12,086 bases of DNA from a virus (Duplodnaviria > Heunggongvirae > Uroviricota > Caudoviricetes). The DNA is taken from IMG/VR virus record IMGVR_UViG_2703718792_000009, one strand, 5' to 3'. The notes below the pieces were generated by a model. It saw nothing but the letters and a program-made list of their open reading frames with translations. It did no database searches and had not been told where the DNA came from. Below are positions 979-12,086 of the stretch, in pieces. The number at the start of each line of letters is the position of its first letter. Within the stretch, counting starts at the first letter, position 1. Made by a program: the position numbers and the translations under genes.

Positions 979-1024
979 TCGCTTTTCAGCGACGTAGGAC
1001 GAATGTCCGTTGTTACAAAGAGCG
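979..1024 (-). promoter_or_regulatory. nutR-like site: boxA (complement of 1010-1024, CGCTCTTTGTAACAA) and boxB hairpin (complement of 979-992, TCGCT-GAAA-AGCGA)
   Basis: boxA-like CGCTCTTT motif followed ~17 nt later by a 5-bp stem with GAAA loop, in the cro-cII interval; the nutL counterpart has the same loop and a covarying stem. Confidence 0.55.
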
Positions 1025-1034
1025 GATCCGCTTA

Positions 1035-1250
1035 TTAAGCGGATTTGTGTTCTGGCGGGAATACGTCATCAAGACTTACTTTTGCGCCTAACTTGTTTAG
1101 ACACGCAACAAGAGCACGGCATGTTTTAAGGTCTGGGAAGCGACGACCAGATTCCCAATGTCCGATAGCTCCCTGTGTGCATCCAACTTCCTTAGCAAGT
1201 GTTGTTTGAGAGATATTCAGTGACTCTCGATATTTTCGTAGGTTGCTCAT
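1035..1250 (-). CDS. cro: Cro-like HTH repressor (71 aa)
   Basis: Start taken at the internal ATG (complement of 1248-1250), preceded by GGAGGG; [39 protein letters not shown]... is an HTH_XRE-type domain resembling the N-terminus of the adjacent cI; divergent from cI across an operator region. Confidence 0.8.
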
Positions 1251-1276
1251 ATGCCCTCCATAGTAACCATGAAGAA

Positions 1277-1305
1277 AAAATACAATATGTACTTTTTGAA
1301 TGCAA
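1277..1305 (-). promoter_or_regulatory. PR-like promoter for cro: -35 TTGCAT (complement of 1300-1305), 17-bp spacer, -10 TATTTT (complement of 1277-1282)
   Basis: Read on the minus strand upstream of cro; good -35, canonical spacing, A/T-rich -10. Confidence 0.5.
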
Positions 1306-1349
1306 GCAAAAATACACATTGTGCATGGATGGTTGCAATACAGAGCGTA
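1281..1349. promoter_or_regulatory. OR-like tripartite operator: three TACA-N3-TGTA-type sites (1281-1291 TACAATATGTA, perfect palindrome; 1313-1323 TACACATTGTG; 1339-1349 TACAGAGCGTA)
   Basis: Three related 11-bp sites between the divergent cro and cI starts, centres spaced 32 and 26 bp; the same motif recurs three times upstream of N. Confidence 0.5.
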
Positions 1350-1360
1350 ATAATAAGGAC

Positions 1361-2020
1361 ATGAAAATGAAATGGTATGAACTGGCTAGATCCAGAATGA
1401 AAGAGCTCGGCATAACTCAAGAGAAGTTAGCCGAAGAGCTAGGTATGACGCAGGGTGGGATTGGACACTGGTTGCGCGGATCTCGTCATCCATCTCTTAG
1501 TGATATTGGTGTGGTGTTTAAATACCTTGGTATTGATAACATATCATTCAACCACGACGGGACATTTTCACCTGTTGGCGAATACTCATCGGCCCCAGTT
1601 AAAAAACAATATGAGTACCCTGTTTTTTCTCATGTTCAGGCTGGGATGTTCTCTCCAGAACTTAGAACCTTTACCAAAGGTGATGCAGAGAGATGGGTAA
1701 GCACAACCAAAAAAGCCAGTGATTCTGCATTCTGGCTTGAGGTTGAAGGTAACTCAATGACCGCACCAACAGGTTCCAAGCCCAGTTTTCCTGATGGAAT
1801 ATTAATTCTGGTTGACCCTGAAAAGGCCGTTGAGCCTGGCGATTTCTGCATAGCCAGACTTGGTGGTGATGAATTTACCTTCAAGAAACTGATCAGGGAT
1901 AGCGGTCAGGTGTTTTTACAACCACTAAACCCACAGTACCCAATAATCCCATGCAATGAGAGTTGTTCCGTTGTGGGGAAAGTTATCGCCAGCCAGTGGC
2001 CTGAAGAGACGTTTGGGTAA
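1361..2020 (+). CDS. cI: cI-type prophage repressor with LexA/S24-like autocleavage domain (219 aa); C-terminal domain lambda-cI-like, N-terminal HTH of a different immunity type
   Basis: C-terminal ~135 aa ([63 protein letters not shown]...[23 protein letters not shown]...[10 protein letters not shown]) match lambda cI as recalled, including the GNSM serine and FKKL lysine; N-terminus [37 protein letters not shown] is unlike lambda. Start set at ATG 1361; the longer track ORF from 1199 would overlap cro and the operators. Confidence 0.9.
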
Positions 2021-2049
2021 CCACAATACAACCTTGTTGTCGCAAAAAG

Positions 2050-2097
2050 ATCGCATATGCGATTGTTTATTAGAAATAGAAATCGCCATATAGGCGA
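2050..2097. promoter_or_regulatory. Two palindromes with TCGC/GCGA half-sites in the cI to 2139-gene intergenic region (2050-2063 ATCGCATATGCGAT, perfect; 2083-2097 TCGCCATATAGGCGA)
   Basis: Read directly from the sequence; located 40-90 bp upstream of the 2139 start codon. Function unknown. Confidence 0.3.
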
Positions 2098-2138
2098 ATA
2101 GTCGATCGCGGCGCATAACCTAAGGAAATCAATAACAT

Positions 2139-3041
2139 ATGCCAAATTTACCGATGGGCGGATCGCAGGGTGAATTACCCTTAGTACCTACAGTAGAAGT
2201 TGTTGCTGATGGCATTCCTATGGGGGTGCTTAATGATGGAACCCCTTATCTAACTCTTTACGGTTTAGCCAAATTATGTGGCATAGATGAAGCACCTCTT
2301 CGAATGTTTACATCTAACTGGGAGACTGAAAAAAATAAGCCAAGAGGACAAAAAGTAGCTGCATACTTAGCTGAGAAAGGATTTAACAACGTTGACCGAC
2401 TGTATACCCGCGTCATAAATAGCTCAAACGTTGAAACACATGCTTATCCTGACTATGTTTGTATGGCTGTTCTTAGGTACTATGCCCTCGATGCCACAAA
2501 TTTTGATAGATCCGTTGCAATAGGAAACTTTGTTCGCTTAGCTGAATACACGCTCAAGCGAATGATCTATGAAAAAGCAAACTATAACCCCAACGCTGCC
2601 ATAGACGTTTCATTCGAAAACTATAGAGCTCGTATAAAGCTAAACAACCAAATACCAACAACTCATTTTGCTGTATTCAGAGAAATAGCAGATATTGCAA
2701 TGACGTTAATAGGAAATGGCTTTCCTATGGATGATACCACGTCACTAGACGGAAGCGTTGGAAATCACTGGGGAAAGTATTGGACAAAAAACAACCTTTC
2801 CGAGAGATTTGGTGATAGAGTTCAATATCAACACATTTTCCCTGAAAACTACAGGCAATCTGCAGCCAACAAGTACATAAAAGCCTGGATTTACCCTATC
2901 GAATCATTGGGGCTATTCAGGAAATGGCTTCACGATAACTATGCCATGGAAAAACTACCCAAATATCTTGGAAACAAAAAAATCAGTAACATAACTGAAC
3001 TATTGGAAGCCGTCAAAAAACCAGCATTACCAAACCAGTGA
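2139..3041 (+). CDS. Hypothetical 300-aa protein in the rexAB-equivalent slot (between cI and PL/nutL); candidate prophage-encoded anti-phage (abortive infection / exclusion) protein
   Basis: Long clean ORF; AAGGA 12 nt upstream of ATG; followed by a strong intrinsic terminator. Not RexA-like. No P-loop or obvious nuclease motif seen. Looks AT-richer than cI by eye (not computed). Confidence 0.8.
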   Translation: MPNLPMGGSQGELPLVPTVEVVADGIPMGVLNDGTPYLTLYGLAKLCGIDEAPLRMFTSNWETEKNKPRGQKVAAYLAEKGFNNVDRLYTRVINSSNVETHAYPDYVCMAVLRYYALDATNFDRSVAIGNFVRLAEYTLKRMIYEKANYNPNAAIDVSFENYRARIKLNNQIPTTHFAVFREIADIAMTLIGNGFPMDDTTSLDGSVGNHWGKYWTKNNLSERFGDRVQYQHIFPENYRQSAANKYIKAWIYPIESLGLFRKWLHDNYAMEKLPKYLGNKKISNITELLEAVKKPALPNQ

Positions 3042-3062
3042 TAAAATTATTTACGCTACAGC

Positions 3063-3090
3063 AACCCGGCCTCAGCGCCGGGTTTTCTTT
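3063..3090 (+). terminator. Rho-independent terminator after the 2139-3041 gene (t_imm-like)
   Basis: aaCCCGGC-ctcagc-GCCGGGtt stem (8 bp) followed by TTTTCTTT. Confidence 0.6.
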
Positions 3091-3231
3091 GCCTCACGCC
3101 CCCACCTAAAGACACATAACCAAATGTATTTATTGAAAAATAAATAGATACAACTCACTAAACCACGCAATTCTGATCTCTCCTTACATCGCCGAGGCGA
3201 TACACCCACGCTAAAAAACAACACTATTAAA

Positions 3232-3300
3232 TACAAAGTGTTATAAAAAATCACCCTATTTTAGAACAAATCGTATTGACCCAATAAAGTACATATCGTA
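3232..3300. promoter_or_regulatory. OL-like tripartite operator: TACAAAGTGTT (3232-3242), AACAAATCGTA (3265-3275), TACATATCGTA (3290-3300)
   Basis: Same TACA-N3-TGTA family as at OR; centre spacings 33 and 25 bp, close to the 32 and 26 bp at OR; overlaps the PL -35/-10. Confidence 0.45.
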
Positions 3301-3304
3301 CTAT
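3276..3304 (+). promoter_or_regulatory. PL-like promoter: -35 TTGACC (3276-3281), 17-bp spacer, -10 TACTAT (3299-3304)
   Basis: Consensus-like -35 with canonical spacing, ~190 bp upstream of N and ~45 bp upstream of nutL boxA. Confidence 0.5.
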
Positions 3305-3350
3305 TTAACCGTCAGCAGGACGCTGGAAGCCAAACGGAACAGACTGGCAG

Positions 3351-3396
3351 GCTCTTTAAACAACGTCGAACTCTCGACTACGTGGCTGAAAAGCCA
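3351..3396 (+). promoter_or_regulatory. nutL-like site: boxA GCTCTTTAAACAA (3351-3363) and boxB hairpin TGGCT-GAAA-AGCCA (3383-3396)
   Basis: boxA resembles the CGCTCTTTAACAA-type consensus; boxB has the same GAAA loop as the nutR candidate with a compensatory stem change (GG/CC here, CG/CG there). Confidence 0.55.
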
Positions 3397-3494
3397 GATC
3401 ACCCAACCACATAAGCTATGGGATGCAATGCCGGAGCAACCGTCTCAGGAGGAGCTTCGAGATTGCATCGCCAAAGTTTATTCGGGAGGAATCC

Positions 3495-3767
3495 ATGTCC
3501 AGAAAAACAGAATTTAAAGGCACCGCAGCTTCTCGCCGTAGAGCTCGTCGCGCAAATCTGCAAAGTCAGGAGGCGATCAGCTCCGACAAGCTACACAGGC
3601 CAACCCCTTCACGAGTGGTCTTGCAATGCAAGCGCAAACCAGCAATGAGAGCAGAAGTGATAACTCTGACAACGTTGACCAGAAAATATGAAGGTTCAAC
3701 TTGTCTTCCGAACGTAGCTCTTTACGCGGCAGGCCACCGGAAATCCAAACAACTGACAGCAAGATGA
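3495..3767 (+). CDS. N: N-type transcription antiterminator, P22 gene-24-like (90 aa)
   Basis: Arginine-rich motif near the N-terminus (ASRRRARRANL) and C-terminus NVALYAAGHRKSKQLTAR, close to the P22 gp24 C-terminus as recalled; GGGAGGA RBS before ATG 3495; downstream of PL and nutL. Confidence 0.8.
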   Translation: MSRKTEFKGTAASRRRARRANLQSQEAISSDKLHRPTPSRVVLQCKRKPAMRAEVITLTTLTRKYEGSTCLPNVALYAAGHRKSKQLTAR

Positions 3768-4997: not shown

Positions 4998-5705
4998 ATG
5001 GATTTGAATAAATTCGATGAGCCATTCAGCCCCGAAGATATCGAATGGCGAATACAGCAAAGCGGTAAAACACGCGATGGCAAGGTGTGGGCTATGGTGC
5101 TGGCTTATGTCACGAACCGGGCAATCATGAAACGCCTGGACGATGTTTGCGGAAAAGCAGGATGGCGCAATGAATACCGCGATATTCCCAACAACGGCGG
5201 CGTTGAATGCGGCATATCAATAAAGATTGATTCCGAATGGGTCACCAAATGGGATGCTGCTGAAAACACGCAGGTAGAAGCCGTCAAAGGTGGTCGTTCC
5301 GGTGCAATGAAGCGCGCTGCCGTTCAGTGGGGAATCGGTCGGTATCTGTATAACCTTGAGGAAGGTTTCGCACAAACATCTCTCGATAAAAAGCAGGGGT
5401 GGCACAGGGCAAAACTGAAAGATGGAACAGGATTTTACTGGCTCCCTCCATCTCTGCCGGGATGGGCAATCCCAGCATCAGATAACAAACCATCACCAGA
5501 AAATACCAACCAGAAATCTCCATCGGTTGACTGCGAACAAATCCTGAAAGACTTCAGCGATTATGCGTCAACAGAAACTGACAAGAAAAAACTCATCGAG
5601 CGTTATCAGCGTGACTGGCAATTAATGGCTGGCAACGAGGAGGCGCAGGCTAAATGCGTTCAGGTAATGAACATCAGAGTTAACGAACTAAAACAGGCGG
5701 CATAA
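4998..5705 (+). CDS. Rad52/Sak-like single-strand annealing protein (235 aa)
   Basis: N-terminal pattern DIEWRIQQSGKTRDGKVWAMVLAYVTNRAIMKRLDDVCGKAGWRNEY is typical of Rad52-family phage annealing proteins; GAGGTG RBS; sits where lambda has bet. Confidence 0.7.
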   Translation: MDLNKFDEPFSPEDIEWRIQQSGKTRDGKVWAMVLAYVTNRAIMKRLDDVCGKAGWRNEYRDIPNNGGVECGISIKIDSEWVTKWDAAENTQVEAVKGGRSGAMKRAAVQWGIGRYLYNLEEGFAQTSLDKKQGWHRAKLKDGTGFYWLPPSLPGWAIPASDNKPSPENTNQKSPSVDCEQILKDFSDYASTETDKKKLIERYQRDWQLMAGNEEAQAKCVQVMNIRVNELKQAA

Positions 5706-6173
5706 ATGTCTCACTTGGACGGAATTATTAAAAGATTCGAGTCCAGCTACAAAGTTAATGAAACAACAGGTTGCTGGGAGTCTACCTATTCAAAAAACAA
5801 AGGAGGATACACAAAATTTGTAGCCTTTGGCGTAACAATGCTTTCTCATCGGGTTGCTTTTGAGCTTTATCACTCCCCCATTCCATCTGGGAAGATGGTT
5901 TGCCACAAATGCGATAACCCATGCTGCGTTAATCCTGAACATCTCTTTTTAGGTAGCGCGCAAGAAAACATGGACGACAAGATAGCAAAAGGAAGGCATC
6001 GTGGAGCCAAGAAAGGTCATGCTCATCATGGTGCAAAATTAACAGAGTGGCAGGTTATAGAAATTAGGAAAAGACTCTCTGAAAAAGAGAGTCAGTACAA
6101 GATAGCAAAAGACATGGGTGTATCTCAATCAATTATAAGCAACATAAAAACTGGCAAGAGGTGGAGCAAATGA
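5706..6173 (+). CDS. HNH endonuclease (155 aa), free-standing
   Basis: Core [27 protein letters not shown] (HNH with Cys-rich metal site); start is immediately after the annealing-protein stop and the stop overlaps the ssb start (ATGA). Confidence 0.8.
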
Positions 6174-6676
6174 GTTCTCGCGGGATAAATAAGGTGATTA
6201 TCCTTGGTCGGGTAGGACAAGACCCTGAAGTTCGATACTCACCATCAGGAACAGCGTTCGCTAACCTGACAATAGCCACGTCAGAACAATGGCGAGATAA
6301 AAATACTGGCGAGCAAAAGGAATTGACTGAATGGCATCGTGTTGCTGTATCCGGGAAACTTGCTGAGGTCGTGGGGCAGTATGTGAAAAAAGGTGATCAG
6401 ATTTATTTCGAGGGAATGCTGAGAACCAGAAAGTGGAAAGACCAGTCAGGGCAAGACCGTTACACAACCGAGGTTCATGTCGGAATTAATGGCGTGATGC
6501 AAATGCTTGGCGGCATTGGCGACAGCAAACAACAAGCAGCCAACAGGCAATCACAGAAGCCACAGCAGCAATCATCACCAGCACAACACAACGAACCTCC
6601 GATGGATTTTGACGACGATATACCCTTTGCACCAGTAACTCTCCCCTTCCCTCATCACGCTATTCACGCAATTTAA
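6170..6676 (+). CDS. ssb: Single-stranded DNA-binding protein SSB, with a 15-aa extension beyond the canonical DDDIPF tip
   Basis: [42 protein letters not shown]...TEWHRV...[11 protein letters not shown]...[11 protein letters not shown] aligns with E. coli SSB as recalled; the ORF continues [15 protein letters not shown] before the stop. Confidence 0.9.
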
Positions 6677-10108: not shown

Positions 10109-10309
10109 ATGCAACACGAACTACAACCTGATTCACTGGTTGATTTGAAATTCATCATGGCCGATACTGGCTTCGGTAAGACCTTCATCTATGACCGGAT
10201 TAAGTCCGGCGACCTGCCTAAAGCCAAAGTTATCCACGGGCGAGCAAGATGGTTATATCGTGATCATTGTGAATTCAAAAATAAGCTCTTAAGCCGCGCC
10301 AATGGGTAA
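10109..10309 (+). CDS. torI: AlpA/TorI-family excisionase (recombination directionality factor), 66 aa
   Basis: MQHELQPDSLVDLKFIMADTGFGKTFIYDRIKSGDLPKAKVIHGRARWLYRDHCEFKNKLLSRANG, a winged-helix Xis/AlpA-type fold signature; matches my recollection of E. coli KplE1 TorI; last prophage gene before the att core; CGGAGA RBS. Confidence 0.75.
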   Translation: MQHELQPDSLVDLKFIMADTGFGKTFIYDRIKSGDLPKAKVIHGRARWLYRDHCEFKNKLLSRANG

Positions 10310-10378
10310 AATAGCGGGTAAAATATTTCTCACATCTAAAAAACACCATTCCAATCAATCCCCTGCCTCGTCAAGTAG

Positions 10379-10393
10379 ATGTCTGCAGGGGAC
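10379..10393 (+). other. Right attachment-site core (attR): 15-nt copy of a tRNA 3' end (CTGCAGGGGACACCA), consistent with tRNA-Arg argW
   Basis: T-stem 3' half, acceptor 3' half, discriminator and CCA with no upstream tRNA body: the partial duplicate left by integration into a tRNA gene. The argW assignment is from memory. Confidence 0.6.
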
Positions 10394-10838
10394 ACCAGAT
10401 ACCCTTCAAACCAAATCTACCTTCACCCCGTAAAAGATGGGTTTGGCAGCACACTTGCCCTATATCTACTCATTTTTACTGCAACAGGTTGAAATCTCAG
10501 CACTGTCAGAAAGCGCTGATGACTAAACAGCCCTGGGCCGGGCGATGTAACCATCATACAGAATCCTGATAGCGAAATATGGCGTGACTCGATACTTCAC
10601 TCTGCAATGCATTCCTTGATGAATTCGCAGGCCCGTGATACACGGGACAGGTCGCTGAATGACGACAATGTCCTGGAAATCAGCGAACCGCGTATCCGGA
10701 GTACATTTGAGCGACTGTACCAGAACATGAATGAGGCGTTTGGATTAGGCGATTATTAGCAGGGCTAAGCATTTTTGTATTATTATTTTCCGGTTGAGGG
10801 ATATGGAGATATCGACAACAACCGGAAAAAGTTTACGT

Positions 10839-12086
10839 CTATATTGCTGAAGGTACAGGCGTTTCCATAACTATTTGCTCGCGTTTTTTACTCAGGAAGA
10901 AAATGCCAAATAGCAACATCAGGCAGACAATACCCGAAATTGCGAAGAAAACTGTCTGGTAGCCTGCGTGGTCAAAGAGTATCCCAGTCGGCGTTGAAAG
11001 CAGCACAATCCCAAGCGAACTGGCAATTTGAAAACCAATCAGAAAGATCGTCGACGACAGGCGCTTATCAAAGTTTGCCACGCTGTATTTGAAGACGGAT
11101 ATGACACAAAGTGGAACCTCAATGGCATGTAACAGCTTCACTAATGAAATAATCCAGGGGTTAACGAACAGCGCGCAGGAAAGGATACGCAACGCCATAA
11201 TCACAACACCGATAAGTAATGCATTTTTTGGCCCTACCCGATTCACAAAGAAAGGAATAATCGCCATGCACAGCGCTTCGAGTACCACCTGGAATGAGTT
11301 GAGATAACCATACAGGCGCGTTCCTACATCGTGTGATTCGAATAAACCTGCATAAAAGACAGGAAAGAGTTGTTGATCAAAAATGTTATAGAAAGACCAC
11401 GTCCCCACAATAAATATGACAAAAACCCAGAAGTTTCGATCCTTGAAAACTGCGATAAAATCCTCTTTTTTTACCCCTCCCGCATCCGCCGCTATGCACT
11501 GGTGATCCTTATCTTTAAAACGCATGTTGATCATCATAAATACAGCGCCAAATAGCGAGACCAACCAGAAGTTGATATGGGGACTGATACTAAAAAATAT
11601 ACCGGCAAAGAACGCGCCAATAGCATAGCCAAAAGATCCCCAGGCGCGCGCTGTTCCATATTCGAAATGAAAATTTCGCGCCATTTTTTCGGTGAAGCTG
11701 TCAAGCAAACCGCATCCCGCCAGATACCCCAGGCCAAAAAAGAGCGCCCCCAGAATTAGACCTACAGAAAAATTGCTTTGCAGTAACGGTTCATAAACGT
11801 AAATCATAAACGGTCCGGTCAAGACCAGAATGAAACTCATACACCAGATGAGCGGTTTCTTCAGACCGAGTTTATCCTGAACGATGCCGTAGAACATCAT
11901 AAATAGAATGCTGGTAAACTGGTTGACCGAATAAAGTGTACCTAATTCCGTCCCTGTTAATCCTAGATGTCCTTTCAGCCAAATAGCGTATAACGACCAC
12001 CACAGCGACCAGGAAATAAAAAAGAGAAATGAGTAACTGGATGCAAAACGATAGTACGCATTTCTGAATGGAATATTCAGTGCCAT
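10839..12086 (-). CDS. cscB: LacY-family oligosaccharide:H+ symporter, most likely sucrose permease CscB (415 aa, complete; start codon is the last 3 nt of the window)
   Basis: Aligns by eye along its length with LacY (DKLGLKKPLIWCMSFILVLTGPF...NFHFEYGTARAWGSFGYAIG... vs LacY [23 protein letters not shown]...NFEFGRARMFGCVGWALC...); N-terminus MALNIPFRNAYYRFASSYSFLFF matches my recollection of CscB. Confidence 0.8.
   Translation of the reverse strand: MALNIPFRNAYYRFASSYSFLFFISWSLWWSLYAIWLKGHLGLTGTELGTLYSVNQFTSILFMMFYGIVQDKLGLKKPLIWCMSFILVLTGPFMIYVYEPLLQSNFSVGLILGALFFGLGYLAGCGLLDSFTEKMARNFHFEYGTARAWGSFGYAIGAFFAGIFFSISPHINFWLVSLFGAVFMMINMRFKDKDHQCIAADAGGVKKEDFIAVFKDRNFWVFVIFIVGTWSFYNIFDQQLFPVFYAGLFESHDVGTRLYGYLNSFQVVLEALCMAIIPFFVNRVGPKNALLIGVVIMALRILSCALFVNPWIISLVKLLHAIEVPLCVISVFKYSVANFDKRLSSTIFLIGFQIASSLGIVLLSTPTGILFDHAGYQTVFFAISGIVCLMLLFGIFFLSKKREQIVMETPVPSAI

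Follow-up and report, generated by a model that had tools for sequence, protein, structure and literature searches.

A putative lysis-lysogeny switch of VT2-Sakai immunity type in a lambdoid Escherichia coli prophage

In the switches of phages 434 and P22, Cro and the head of the repressor are HTH paralogues, and both recognise a common set of short, partly symmetric operators whose outer bases are conserved and whose centre is variable. The region described here resembles them in this design and differs in three respects: there is no significant DNA similarity to 434 or P22, the C-terminal domain of the repressor is of lambda type, and the 434 operator reads ACAA-N6-TTGT. Much closer systems have been described among Stx phages of the VT2-Sakai type (VT2-Sakai is Sp5, NC_000902), whose mosaic repressor and six putative operators have been on record in GenBank and in print since about 1999-2003. 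GenBank record AP005153 (Stx1-converting phage) carries the same six sites annotated as putative operators. Table S1 of PMC10742460 (2023) gives them as VT2-Sakai 17-mers OR1-3 and OL1-3, and Fattah et al. 2000 is named there as the source for a repressor that is lambda-like at its C-terminus and divergent at its N-terminus. A search of the accessible literature found no EMSA, footprinting or cooperativity data for these six sites with their own repressor or Cro; the only binding data located are for lambda CI.

We analysed a window of 12,086 nucleotides, the whole stretch of virus record IMGVR_UViG_2703718792_000009, which belongs to a prophage at the torI/cscB junction. No stx gene is in view, and there is no tRNA gene within the window that could mark an attachment site. 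We suggest, with a probability of roughly 0.9, that the region between cro and N is the lysis-lysogeny (immunity) switch of a lambdoid E. coli prophage, that it is of the VT2-Sakai/Sp5 immunity type and that it works by the mechanism proposed below. The first-pass annotation had read the region as a domain-level mosaic in which a C-terminal domain of lambda type is joined to a non-lambda HTH domain akin to that of Cro, with two sets of three operators. This reading stands, and it matches both the AP005153 annotation and PMC10742460. The features are as follows; operators are listed without strand.

1035-1250, minus strand: cro, 71 aa plus stop, coding for an all-alpha HTH_3 protein (Pfam HTH_3, 4.9e-12)
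1277-1305, minus strand: PR candidate, read from the sequence, with -35 TTGCAT (1305-1300), 17-bp spacer and -10 TATTTT (1282-1277)
1281-1291: putative OR1 core TACAATATGTA; published 17-mer at 1278-1294, identical to VT2-Sakai OR1 (PMC10742460 Table S1)
1313-1323: putative OR2 core TACACATTGTG; 17-mer at 1310-1326, identical to VT2-Sakai OR2
1339-1349: putative OR3 core TACAGAGCGTA; 17-mer at 1336-1352, 1 nt from VT2-Sakai OR3 (position 1338)
1348-1354, plus strand: PRM -10 candidate (TAATAA / AATAAT), proposed from the sequence
1361-2020, plus strand: cI, N-terminal HTH domain and lambda-type C-terminal block
1361-1608, plus strand: immunity-specific N-terminal HTH domain of cI with the beginning of the linker (aa 1-83; Pfam HTH_3, 1.9e-10)
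1609-2020, plus strand: lambda-type C-terminal block of cI with the oligomerisation surface, then stop codon (Pfam Peptidase_S24, 1e-27)
2139-3041, plus strand: bstA-family abortive-infection gene (PADLOC BstA, 4.1e-106; PHROG 6287 'BstA abortive infection system', 2e-131)
3063-3094, plus strand: intrinsic terminator from a terminator scan, at the end of the cI-bstA (PRM) transcript, homologous to lambda between rexB and OL
3232-3242: putative OL3 core TACAAAGTGTT; 17-mer at 3229-3245, 2 nt from VT2-Sakai OL3, a putative operator in AP005153
3265-3275: putative OL2 core AACAAATCGTA; 17-mer at 3262-3278, 1 nt from VT2-Sakai OL2
3276-3304, plus strand: PL, with -35 TTGACC (3276-3281), 17-bp spacer and -10 TACTAT (3299-3304), promoter scan 9/12
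3290-3300: putative OL1 core TACATATCGTA; 17-mer at 3287-3303, identical to VT2-Sakai OL1
3495-3767, plus strand: N antiterminator, first gene of the PL operon (Pfam N_peptide, 2.2e-32)

The same module is found in VT2-Sakai, AP005153, Stx2 II (AP005154), 1717, 2851, Nil2, YYZ-2008 and the PA phages, as well as in non-Stx coliphages including 2B8, ev017 and ev207. The repressor is identical to that of AP005153 at 215 of 219 residues. Its residues 1-83 are the same in both, and tblastn finds them 100% identical in many Stx and non-Stx coliphages (Stx2 II, PA phages, 2B8 and others). Cro shares 69 of 71 residues (97%) with the putative Cro of AP005153, and the DNA from cro through OR to the N-terminal domain of cI is 97-99% identical within this group. 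Promoters and the lambda-like C-terminal domain are also held in common. Three of the operator 17-mers (OR1, OR2 and OL1) equal those of VT2-Sakai, and the other three are off by 1-2 nt; the four differences fall outside the 11-bp core (1338 and 3243) or at core position 8 (3239 and 3272). The DNA-binding domain of the repressor, Cro and the six operator sequences are thus all of the VT2-Sakai/Sp5 immunity type. Differences from these phages are a few substitutions in inter-operator spacers, one of them in the -35 of PR (TTGCAT here, TTGTAT there), and the genes between cI and OL. Because a bstA homologue here replaces their hypothetical ORFs, only 57-58% of positions 1000-3450 is covered by DNA of VT2-Sakai-type phages.

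The bstA gene occupies the place of lambda rexA-rexB and can be regarded as cargo, outside the switch proper. Pfam and NCBIfam gave no match to this 300-aa ORF; it was identified as BstA by PADLOC and PHROGs, and E. coli PK12 has a homologue that carries the annotation 'BstA C-terminal domain-containing protein'.

Likeness to lambda is of another kind. The order cII-cro-OR-cI-(cargo)-terminator-OL-N is shared, and the tripartite lambdoid layout is present, with divergent cI and cro, three operators over PR/PRM and three over PL upstream of N. Near-identity to lambda is seen in the terminator region beyond the cargo gene, from 3063 to approximately 3181, and again where the PL transcript begins, the alignment placing the start region TCAGCAGGACGC in both phages. 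One arm of an inverted repeat (I2, 3116-3132 / 3228-3244) lies in this lambda-shared sequence, and the repeat was rejected as the source of a seventh operator, its left arm being a 2-mismatch match of background level. Set against these likenesses are the repressor, which is 18 aa shorter here, and Cro, which is of the all-alpha HTH_3 type and not of the lambda type (no alignment of the two Cro proteins had E below 100). Further, operators have the form TACR-N3-YGTA here and are TATCACCGC-type 17-mers in lambda, and spacings are 32/26 and 25/33 bp here versus 24/23 and 24/20 bp in lambda. Lambda 17-bp operators, the lambda CI N-terminal domain and lambda Cro, which together define imm-lambda, are all missing from the region.

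The border between the two kinds of sequence runs through cI itself. Its lambda-like block has sharp borders at about 1609 and 2017, and the C-terminal domain was expected from the first reading to match lambda cI. This was confirmed by comparison: 133 of 136 residues (98%) are identical to lambda CI over the shared block, and nucleotides 1609-2017 agree with lambda at 384 of 409 positions, with 22 synonymous and 3 non-synonymous differences. The cleavage site (VQ-AG-MF), the serine (GNSMT) and the lysine (FKKLI) align with lambda CI and are identical to it. The protein also matches the lambda repressor structure in PDB (3bdn, 1.9e-96) and the C-terminal domain structures 1f39, 1kca and 2ho0. 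An HTH_3 head (residues 11-58, E 1.9e-10) followed by a Peptidase S24 domain with Ala-Gly site and Ser/Lys dyad is the composition of self-cleaving repressors of the LexA/lambda-CI type. Since the C-terminal domain is 98% identical to that of lambda CI, we infer RecA-stimulated autocleavage and SOS induction of the prophage.

The N-terminal domain was likewise correctly perceived as different from that of lambda and similar to the HTH of the adjacent Cro. By alignment, it is unrelated to its lambda counterpart at the DNA level (110 of 308 columns identical), and it shares 38% identity with Cro (E 7e-14; recognition helices of 11 residues each). Cro is thus a paralogue of the repressor head.

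These comparisons support a repressor specificity that would be distinct from that of lambda. An alternative is that the separation is incomplete, with lambda CI and the present cI cross-reacting through weak operator recognition or oligomers mixed through the C-terminal domain, which would make the region behave as partly lambda-immune. According to PMC10742460, all six VT2-Sakai 17-mers are shifted by lambda CI, and the paper quotes Fattah 2000 for some cross-immunity with lambda; the near-identity of C-terminal domains points the same way. However, apparent KD values of lambda CI in that paper are 3.7-6.4 uM for the VT2-Sakai 17-mers against 0.21-3.07 uM for lambda's own six sites, and the passages covered make no mention of a non-specific DNA control in the shift assay. 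The head and Cro are also unrelated to those of lambda. The lambda consensus TATCACCGCNNGTGGTA had 0 matches here at up to 3 mismatches, in agreement with the first-pass annotation, and TACR-N3-YGTA was not found in lambda OR or OL, which served as negative control. We therefore consider such cross-reaction quite improbable and retain a separate, VT2-Sakai-type specificity.

As for the operators, all six sites have the coordinates and sequences first proposed for them, with one set of three in the cro-cI gap and the other upstream of N. The motif proposed with them, TACA-N3-TGTA, needs some correction. Five sites fit it with at most one mismatch, and OL2 has two (one to TACRNNNYGTA); position 8, given as T, is in fact Y, since some sites and phages have T there and others C. 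The OR1 core TACAATATGTA, originally described as the only perfect palindrome, is indeed the sole exact match to the pattern and overlaps the PR -10, but its symmetry is confined to the outer 4+4 bases. Phage Dewey has another exact match, TACATCTTGTA, as its OR2. Spacings had been called near-identical, and centre-to-centre distances are indeed 32/26 bp in the cro-cI gap and 33/25 bp upstream of N. Their order relative to the promoters is nevertheless mirrored: O1-32-O2-26-O3 at OR, O1-25-O2-33-O3 at OL.

Background density of the motif gives a two-sided answer. At up to one mismatch, the whole window has 6 matches versus 3.9 expected, and at two mismatches 48 versus 49, so that OL2 by itself stands at background level; there is no global enrichment in the window (6 vs 3.9; 10 vs 10; 48 vs 49). 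Density alone decides neither way, and we therefore turned to clustering, conservation and a second phage as evidence. Firstly, 5 of the 6 matches at up to one mismatch fall in the two regulatory gaps of about 70 bp, and at least three matches within 80 bp occurred in 0.1% of 2000 first-order Markov simulations. Secondly, in five phages, closely related and so not independent samples, variable columns number 4 of 48 in outer half-site positions versus 28 of 90 in spacers (Fisher p = 0.003). Substitutions spare the half-sites and are free in the central triplet and spacers; none of the 30 sites (six positions in five phages) departs from AC and GT, and the OR3 core does not vary at all in these phages. 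The whole-window density is thus that of chance, and the sites are clustered in regulatory gaps, placed at promoters and conserved across phages.

The second phage is SPN9CC, a P22-like phage of Salmonella (JF900176). Its repressor is homologous over the full length (70% overall, 52% in the N-terminal domain) and its Cro is 43% identical. It has the motif in exact copies (TACACATCGTA, TACAAATTGTA and TACAAAATGTA), the three-site layout at both OR and OL, and nearly equal spacings (33/26 and 30/25). Its -10 hexamer begins at operator position 10, as it does here. The motif count is 9 against 3.35 expected, a number reached in 1 of 200 shuffles, and 7 of the 9 matches lie in the cro-cI gap and upstream of N. 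Differences are found in the recognition helix (TKGAVSHWLNG in SPN9CC), host genus and flanking genes.

One could argue that AT-rich promoter DNA and common descent produced the motif cluster, with no relation to repressor binding, given a global density at the shuffled expectation, the close kinship of the five phages and the overlap of sites with -10-like sequence. The rarity of such clusters in simulations and the avoidance of half-sites by substitutions argue against this. So does the recurrence of motif and spacing in SPN9CC despite 52% and 43% identity of the cI head and Cro, and lambda promoters at equivalent positions lack the motif. We regard this explanation as very improbable, and sites read by the repressor remain the preferred reading.

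It is less improbable, though still unlikely, that the true operators differ in extent or number from six 11-mers. They may be sites of 13-17 bp, or only two may be functional at OL, with OL2 and OL3 as relics or low-affinity sites. The two mismatches of OL2 (AACAAATCGTA), at background frequency, would fit this, as would the …GTT end of OL3 and the variation of core positions 1, 4, 8 and 11 among sites and phages. Moreover, the published sites were defined as 17-mers by analogy with lambda, and phage 933W has only two OL sites (PMC4587872). On the other hand, all six positions are kept in five phages with AC and GT invariant, and three-site layouts with matching spacing recur at OR and OL of the distant SPN9CC. 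The OL2 candidate is backed by its position, directly adjoining the PL -35, by conservation and by the VT2-Sakai allele AACAAATTGTA, which has one mismatch. We thus keep to six operators in the following model.

The promoters set the frame for it. With 8/12, the PR candidate falls short of the 9/12 that the promoter scan required; the hexamers of PR and PRM are weak matches assigned by eye, and they agree with the annotation of AP005153, whose 'putative major rightward promoter' coincides with the PR -35. OR1 and OL1 sit in the spacers of PR and PL, and the final two bases of each are the first two of the respective -10. OR2 stops 7 bp away from the PR -35 and directly adjoins a weak PRM -35, and OR3 overlaps the PRM -10. 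Transcription from PRM would begin near 1361, on the A of the cI start codon, so that cI mRNA is probably leaderless, as in lambda. In SPN9CC, a perfect TATAAT stands in the PRM -10 register, 7 nt before the cI ATG, and an in-frame TGA upstream of cI excludes a longer ORF.

We propose that the cI dimer uses its HTH_3 head, which is of 434/P22-like type, to bind partly symmetric sites with consensus TACR-N3-YGTA and invariant AC and GT. Repressor at OR1 and OL1 would occupy the PR and PL spacers and, because operators and -10 hexamers share two bases, block both lytic promoters. With OR2 beside the weak PRM -35 and OR3 over the PRM -10, positive and then negative autoregulation in the style of lambda might act on the PRM transcript, a probably leaderless cI-bstA mRNA. 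Cro, the paralogue of the repressor head, would read the same sites. The C-terminal block would allow dimers to form and to contact each other, and would carry out RecA-stimulated self-cleavage at the conserved Ala-Gly; the prophage would consequently be SOS-inducible. A closely spaced operator pair (25-26 bp) lies over PL and PRM, and the 32-bp pair over PR. In its operator geometry PL thus resembles PRM and not PR, and the cooperative pairs may therefore not be those of lambda.

Taken together, the immunity type is that of the Sakai Stx2a phage, which predicts that the lysogen would be immune to superinfection by many Stx phages with the same repressor. The scientific gain is small and has three parts. 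The first is a comparative case for a functional core TACR-N3-YGTA with AC and GT invariant. The second, new here, is the recurrence of operator motif and spacing in the distant Salmonella phage SPN9CC. The third is that comparison favours 1361 as the start of cI over an in-frame ATG near 1325, within OR2, which annotations of homologues use. Because SPN9CC carries a homologous head (52%) on a lambda-like C-terminal domain that is conserved, though visibly more diverged, such domains are common to several specificity classes, at least three by sequence: lambda, VT2-Sakai type and SPN9CC type. Together with the 98% identity to lambda CI, this raises the tentative and rather doubtful idea that repressors of co-resident hetero-immune prophages form mixed dimers, tetramers and octamers through the shared domain. 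If true, mixed oligomers might underlie the lambda/VT2-Sa cross-immunity for which Fattah 2000 is cited, or give dominant-negative destabilisation, and they would couple stability and induction of different prophages.

The 12-kb window comprises the early region of a lambdoid prophage of E. coli, in an orientation opposite to the usual lambda map. From left to right it holds the following features.

Features of the immunity region and its surroundings (window coordinates, strand)
597-893, minus: cII (Pfam Phage_CII, 1.5e-31)
1035-1250, minus: cro, 71 aa (HTH_3)
between cro and cI, ~110 bp: regulatory gap OR
1361-2020, plus: cI (HTH_3 and Peptidase_S24)
2139-3041, plus: bstA, 300-aa ORF (BstA by PADLOC and PHROG)
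3063-3094, plus: intrinsic terminator
between terminator and N: second regulatory gap, OL
3495-3767, plus: N (N_peptide, 2.2e-32)

The first-pass annotation described a lambda-type cI C-terminal domain (CTD) fused to a different DNA-binding specificity, and both halves of this description hold. Over the shared block, 133 of 136 aa are identical to lambda cI. At the DNA level (1609-2017) the identity is 384/409 nt, with 22 synonymous and 3 non-synonymous differences, and the block has abrupt borders just before the YEYPVFSH motif and at the stop codon. Conservation extends to the Ala-Gly cleavage site and to both residues of the Ser/Lys catalytic dyad, and lambda repressor structures are the best PDB matches of this part. 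The DNA of the N-terminal 83 residues is unrelated to lambda; this head is instead 38% identical to the adjacent Cro (E 7e-14), with nearly identical recognition helices. No similarity was detected between Cro and lambda Cro. Cro residues 1-70 match PDB 28tn, a "lambda repressor-like protein" of 82 aa (E 4.7e-18), a possible template for modelling its operator recognition.

DNA resembling that of lambda occurs in three segments. One is the cI C-terminal block, another runs from the terminator (3063) to about 3181, some 50 bp short of OL3, and the third is formed by the opening bases of the PL transcript (TCAGCAGGACGC). What bears specificity is non-lambda: the OL operators at one end, and OR, cro and the cI head at the other. 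The repressor of the Salmonella P22-like phage SPN9CC (JF900176) is homologous to the window cI over its full length (70% overall, 52% in the head). Its lambda-type tail is conserved, yet visibly further from the window's tail than lambda's is. Lambda-type CTDs thus serve at least three head types.

The six proposed 11-bp operators were recovered with the same positions and sequences: OR1-OR3 at 1281-1291, 1313-1323 and 1339-1349, and OL3-OL1 at 3232-3242, 3265-3275 and 3290-3300. The lambda operator consensus is, as claimed, not found in the window. Matches to TACA-N3-TGTA with at most one mismatch show no global excess (6 in the whole window, 3.9 expected), but five of the six lie in the two regulatory gaps, and three or more within 80 bp arose in 0.1% of 2000 first-order Markov simulations. 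The OL2 site, AACAAATCGTA, has two mismatches; because matches at this stringency occur at background level (48 against 49 expected), its support comes from context alone. The site TACAATATGTA is indeed the sole exact match to the pattern, but it is palindromic in its outer 4+4 bases only and not throughout, positions 5 and 7 being non-complementary. At position 8 both T and C occur, within the set of six sites as well as in the alleles of other phages; TACR-N3-YGTA is a better consensus. It has 10 matches in the window, and the operator regions hold three exact and three one-mismatch matches that comprise all six sites.

The spacings of 32/26 and 33/25 bp are numerically correct. Since PR, the cro promoter, fires leftward and PL, the N promoter, rightward, their order is mirrored relative to function: counted outward from the promoter, OR reads O1-32-O2-26-O3 and OL reads O1-25-O2-33-O3. 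A 17-nt direct repeat (3212-3228, TAAAAAACAACACTATT, and 3244-3260, TAAAAAATCACCCTATT; 82% identical, 32 bp apart) has its copies directly before OL3 and OL2. Hence OL3 and OL2 look as if a ~32-bp unit had been duplicated in tandem, which would account for the 33-bp OL spacing.

The promoter scan placed PL at TTGACC (3276-3281) and TACTAT (3299-3304) with a 17-bp spacer. The PR candidate, found by eye on the minus strand, consists of TTGCAT (1305-1300), 17 bp and TATTTT (1282-1277); its -35 matches the one annotated in the homologous record AP005153, from a Stx1-converting phage. For PRM, the cI promoter, the -10 candidate is TAATAA/AATAAT at 1348-1354. In all three promoters the -10 hexamer starts at operator-core position 10 (TA...). 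OL2 adjoins the -35 of PL, and a gap of 2 bp separates OR2 from the -35 presumed for PRM; hence the geometry of PL resembles PRM, not PR. Transcription from PRM would begin with the A of the cI ATG (about 1361) and give a leaderless, lambda-like mRNA.

GenBank and RefSeq give homologous cI genes 231 aa, counted from an ATG that corresponds to window 1325 and lies within OR2, upstream of predicted PRM; the VT2-Sakai RefSeq record divides cI into a "fragment" and a shorter cI. The conserved ATGAAAATGAA start at 1361 lies 7 nt 3' of the -10-like hexamer. We favour 1361 over 1325 because in SPN9CC the longer form is ruled out by an in-frame TGA that precedes the conserved MKM(K/N)WY start. The true product is probably the 219-aa protein, translated from a leaderless mRNA.

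Five phages of this immunity type were compared: the window, VT2-Sakai (the Stx2a phage Sp5 of O157:H7 Sakai), Dewey, phi458 and the E. coli PK12 prophage. Variable columns number 4 of 48 in the outer half-site positions (positions 4, 8, 8 and 11), 5 of 18 in the central triplets and 28 of 90 in the spacers. Outer positions differ from spacers with Fisher p = 0.003, a value that is indicative only because the five phages are related. AC at positions 2-3 and GT at positions 9-10 do not vary in any of the 30 sites, and Dewey OR2 is an exact TACATCTTGTA. SPN9CC, whose cI head and Cro are 52% and 43% identical to those of the window, has 9 relaxed-motif matches where 3.35 are expected; in 200 shuffles this number was reached once. 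Of the nine, seven lie in the cro-cI gap and upstream of N; the operator spacings are 33/26 and 30/25, and after OR3 comes a perfect TATAAT in the same register. Lambda served as the negative control: OR and OL of its immunity region contain no site of this kind. As far as sequence comparison goes, both data sets support a function of the predicted operators.

The place that rexA-rexB occupy in lambda, between cI and OL, is taken by bstA, whose product belongs to the BstA family of abortive-infection defence proteins (PADLOC 4e-106; PHROG 6287, 2e-131). VT2-Sakai-type Stx phages carry unrelated hypothetical ORFs there. In the lambda-immunity wild phage CL707 a 77%-identical copy takes this place, as does a homologue in PK12. 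The bstA start codon lies between two GATCGC direct repeats (2104-2109 and 2161-2166, 57 bp apart); a third copy is found at 2049. In PK12 both repeat positions read ATCCC, so the two repeats changed in concert. The BTP1 aba, a 63-bp self-immunity element, likewise spans the start codon and carries CCCGCC direct repeats at its ends, at a distance of 56 bp (PMC8585504). By this analogy, 2103-2167 is a possible candidate for an anti-BstA (aba) self-immunity element.

Likely nut sites were recognized by eye: nutL (plus, 3351-3395) with boxA GCTCTTTAA (3351-3359) and boxB hairpin GGCTGAAAAGCC (3384-3395), and nutR (minus, 980-1024) with boxA CGCTCTTTG (1024-1016) and boxB CGCTGAAAAGCG (991-980). 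Both boxB loops are GAAAA, consistent with the arginine-rich N. To the right of N follow erf, an HNH endonuclease gene, ssb, an exonuclease gene, a torI-type excisionase gene and a host cscB-like permease gene; the window thus extends to the prophage end. The HNH gene (5706-6173, plus) is placed between erf (4998-5705) and ssb (6161-6676), with its ATG directly behind the erf stop codon and a 13-nt overlap with ssb. This gene may represent a mobile element of homing type inserted into the recombination module. At the prophage end (10109-12086), neither an integrase nor a tRNA gene separates the torI-type gene (10109-10309) from the cscB-like gene (10839-12086), a host oligosaccharide MFS transporter. 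Many E. coli genomes share this junction at 98-99% identity, with the excisionase gene annotated there as torI; the layout recalls that of the KplE1 prophage.

The segment cro-OR-cI head (1035-1612) is 97-99% identical to many phage records, among them Stx phages (VT2-Sakai, AP005153, Stx2 II, 1717, 2851, Nil2, YYZ-2008 and PA phages) and non-Stx coliphages (2B8, ev017, ev207, 2G7b and PhiR phages). The CI of AP005153 shares 215/219 aa with the window repressor, with residues 1-83 identical, and its Cro 69/71. That record annotates PR, PRM, PL and six 17-bp "putative operators", which coincide with the 11-bp sites if a 1-bp indel in an A-run is allowed. Table S1 of a 2023 paper in Genes (PMC10742460) gives VT2-Sakai OR1-3 and OL1-3; OR1, OR2 and OL1 are identical in the window, OR3 and OL2 differ by 1 nt and OL3 by 2 nt. 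Predicted OR1-3 and OL1-3 of Sakai-type phages are also found in PMC4587872.

One could suppose that the specificity is shared with lambda and that the repressors cross-react; PMC10742460 attributes some cross-immunity with lambda to Fattah et al. 2000. The same paper cites that work for high C-terminal but low N-terminal, DNA-binding similarity between VT2-Sa and lambda CI. In the searchable literature we found no binding measurement for the cognate repressor or Cro on the six sites. The sole binding data found, again from PMC10742460, concern lambda CI, with an apparent KD of 3.7-6.4 uM on VT2-Sakai 17-mers against 0.21-3.07 uM on lambda's own sites. We read this as weak binding, by which shared specificity is not established, and consider cross-reaction improbable.

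We prefer a separate, non-lambda specificity. From the lambda-type CTD and the layout we infer cooperativity, PRM activation, a leaderless start and RecA-stimulated cleavage. Since AP005153, PMC10742460 and PMC4587872 already describe the region, the hybrid immunity region of the first-pass annotation, its observation confirmed and its interpretation supported, is a correct rediscovery. The feature is already known and represents an ordinary case of an immunity type widespread among Stx phages.
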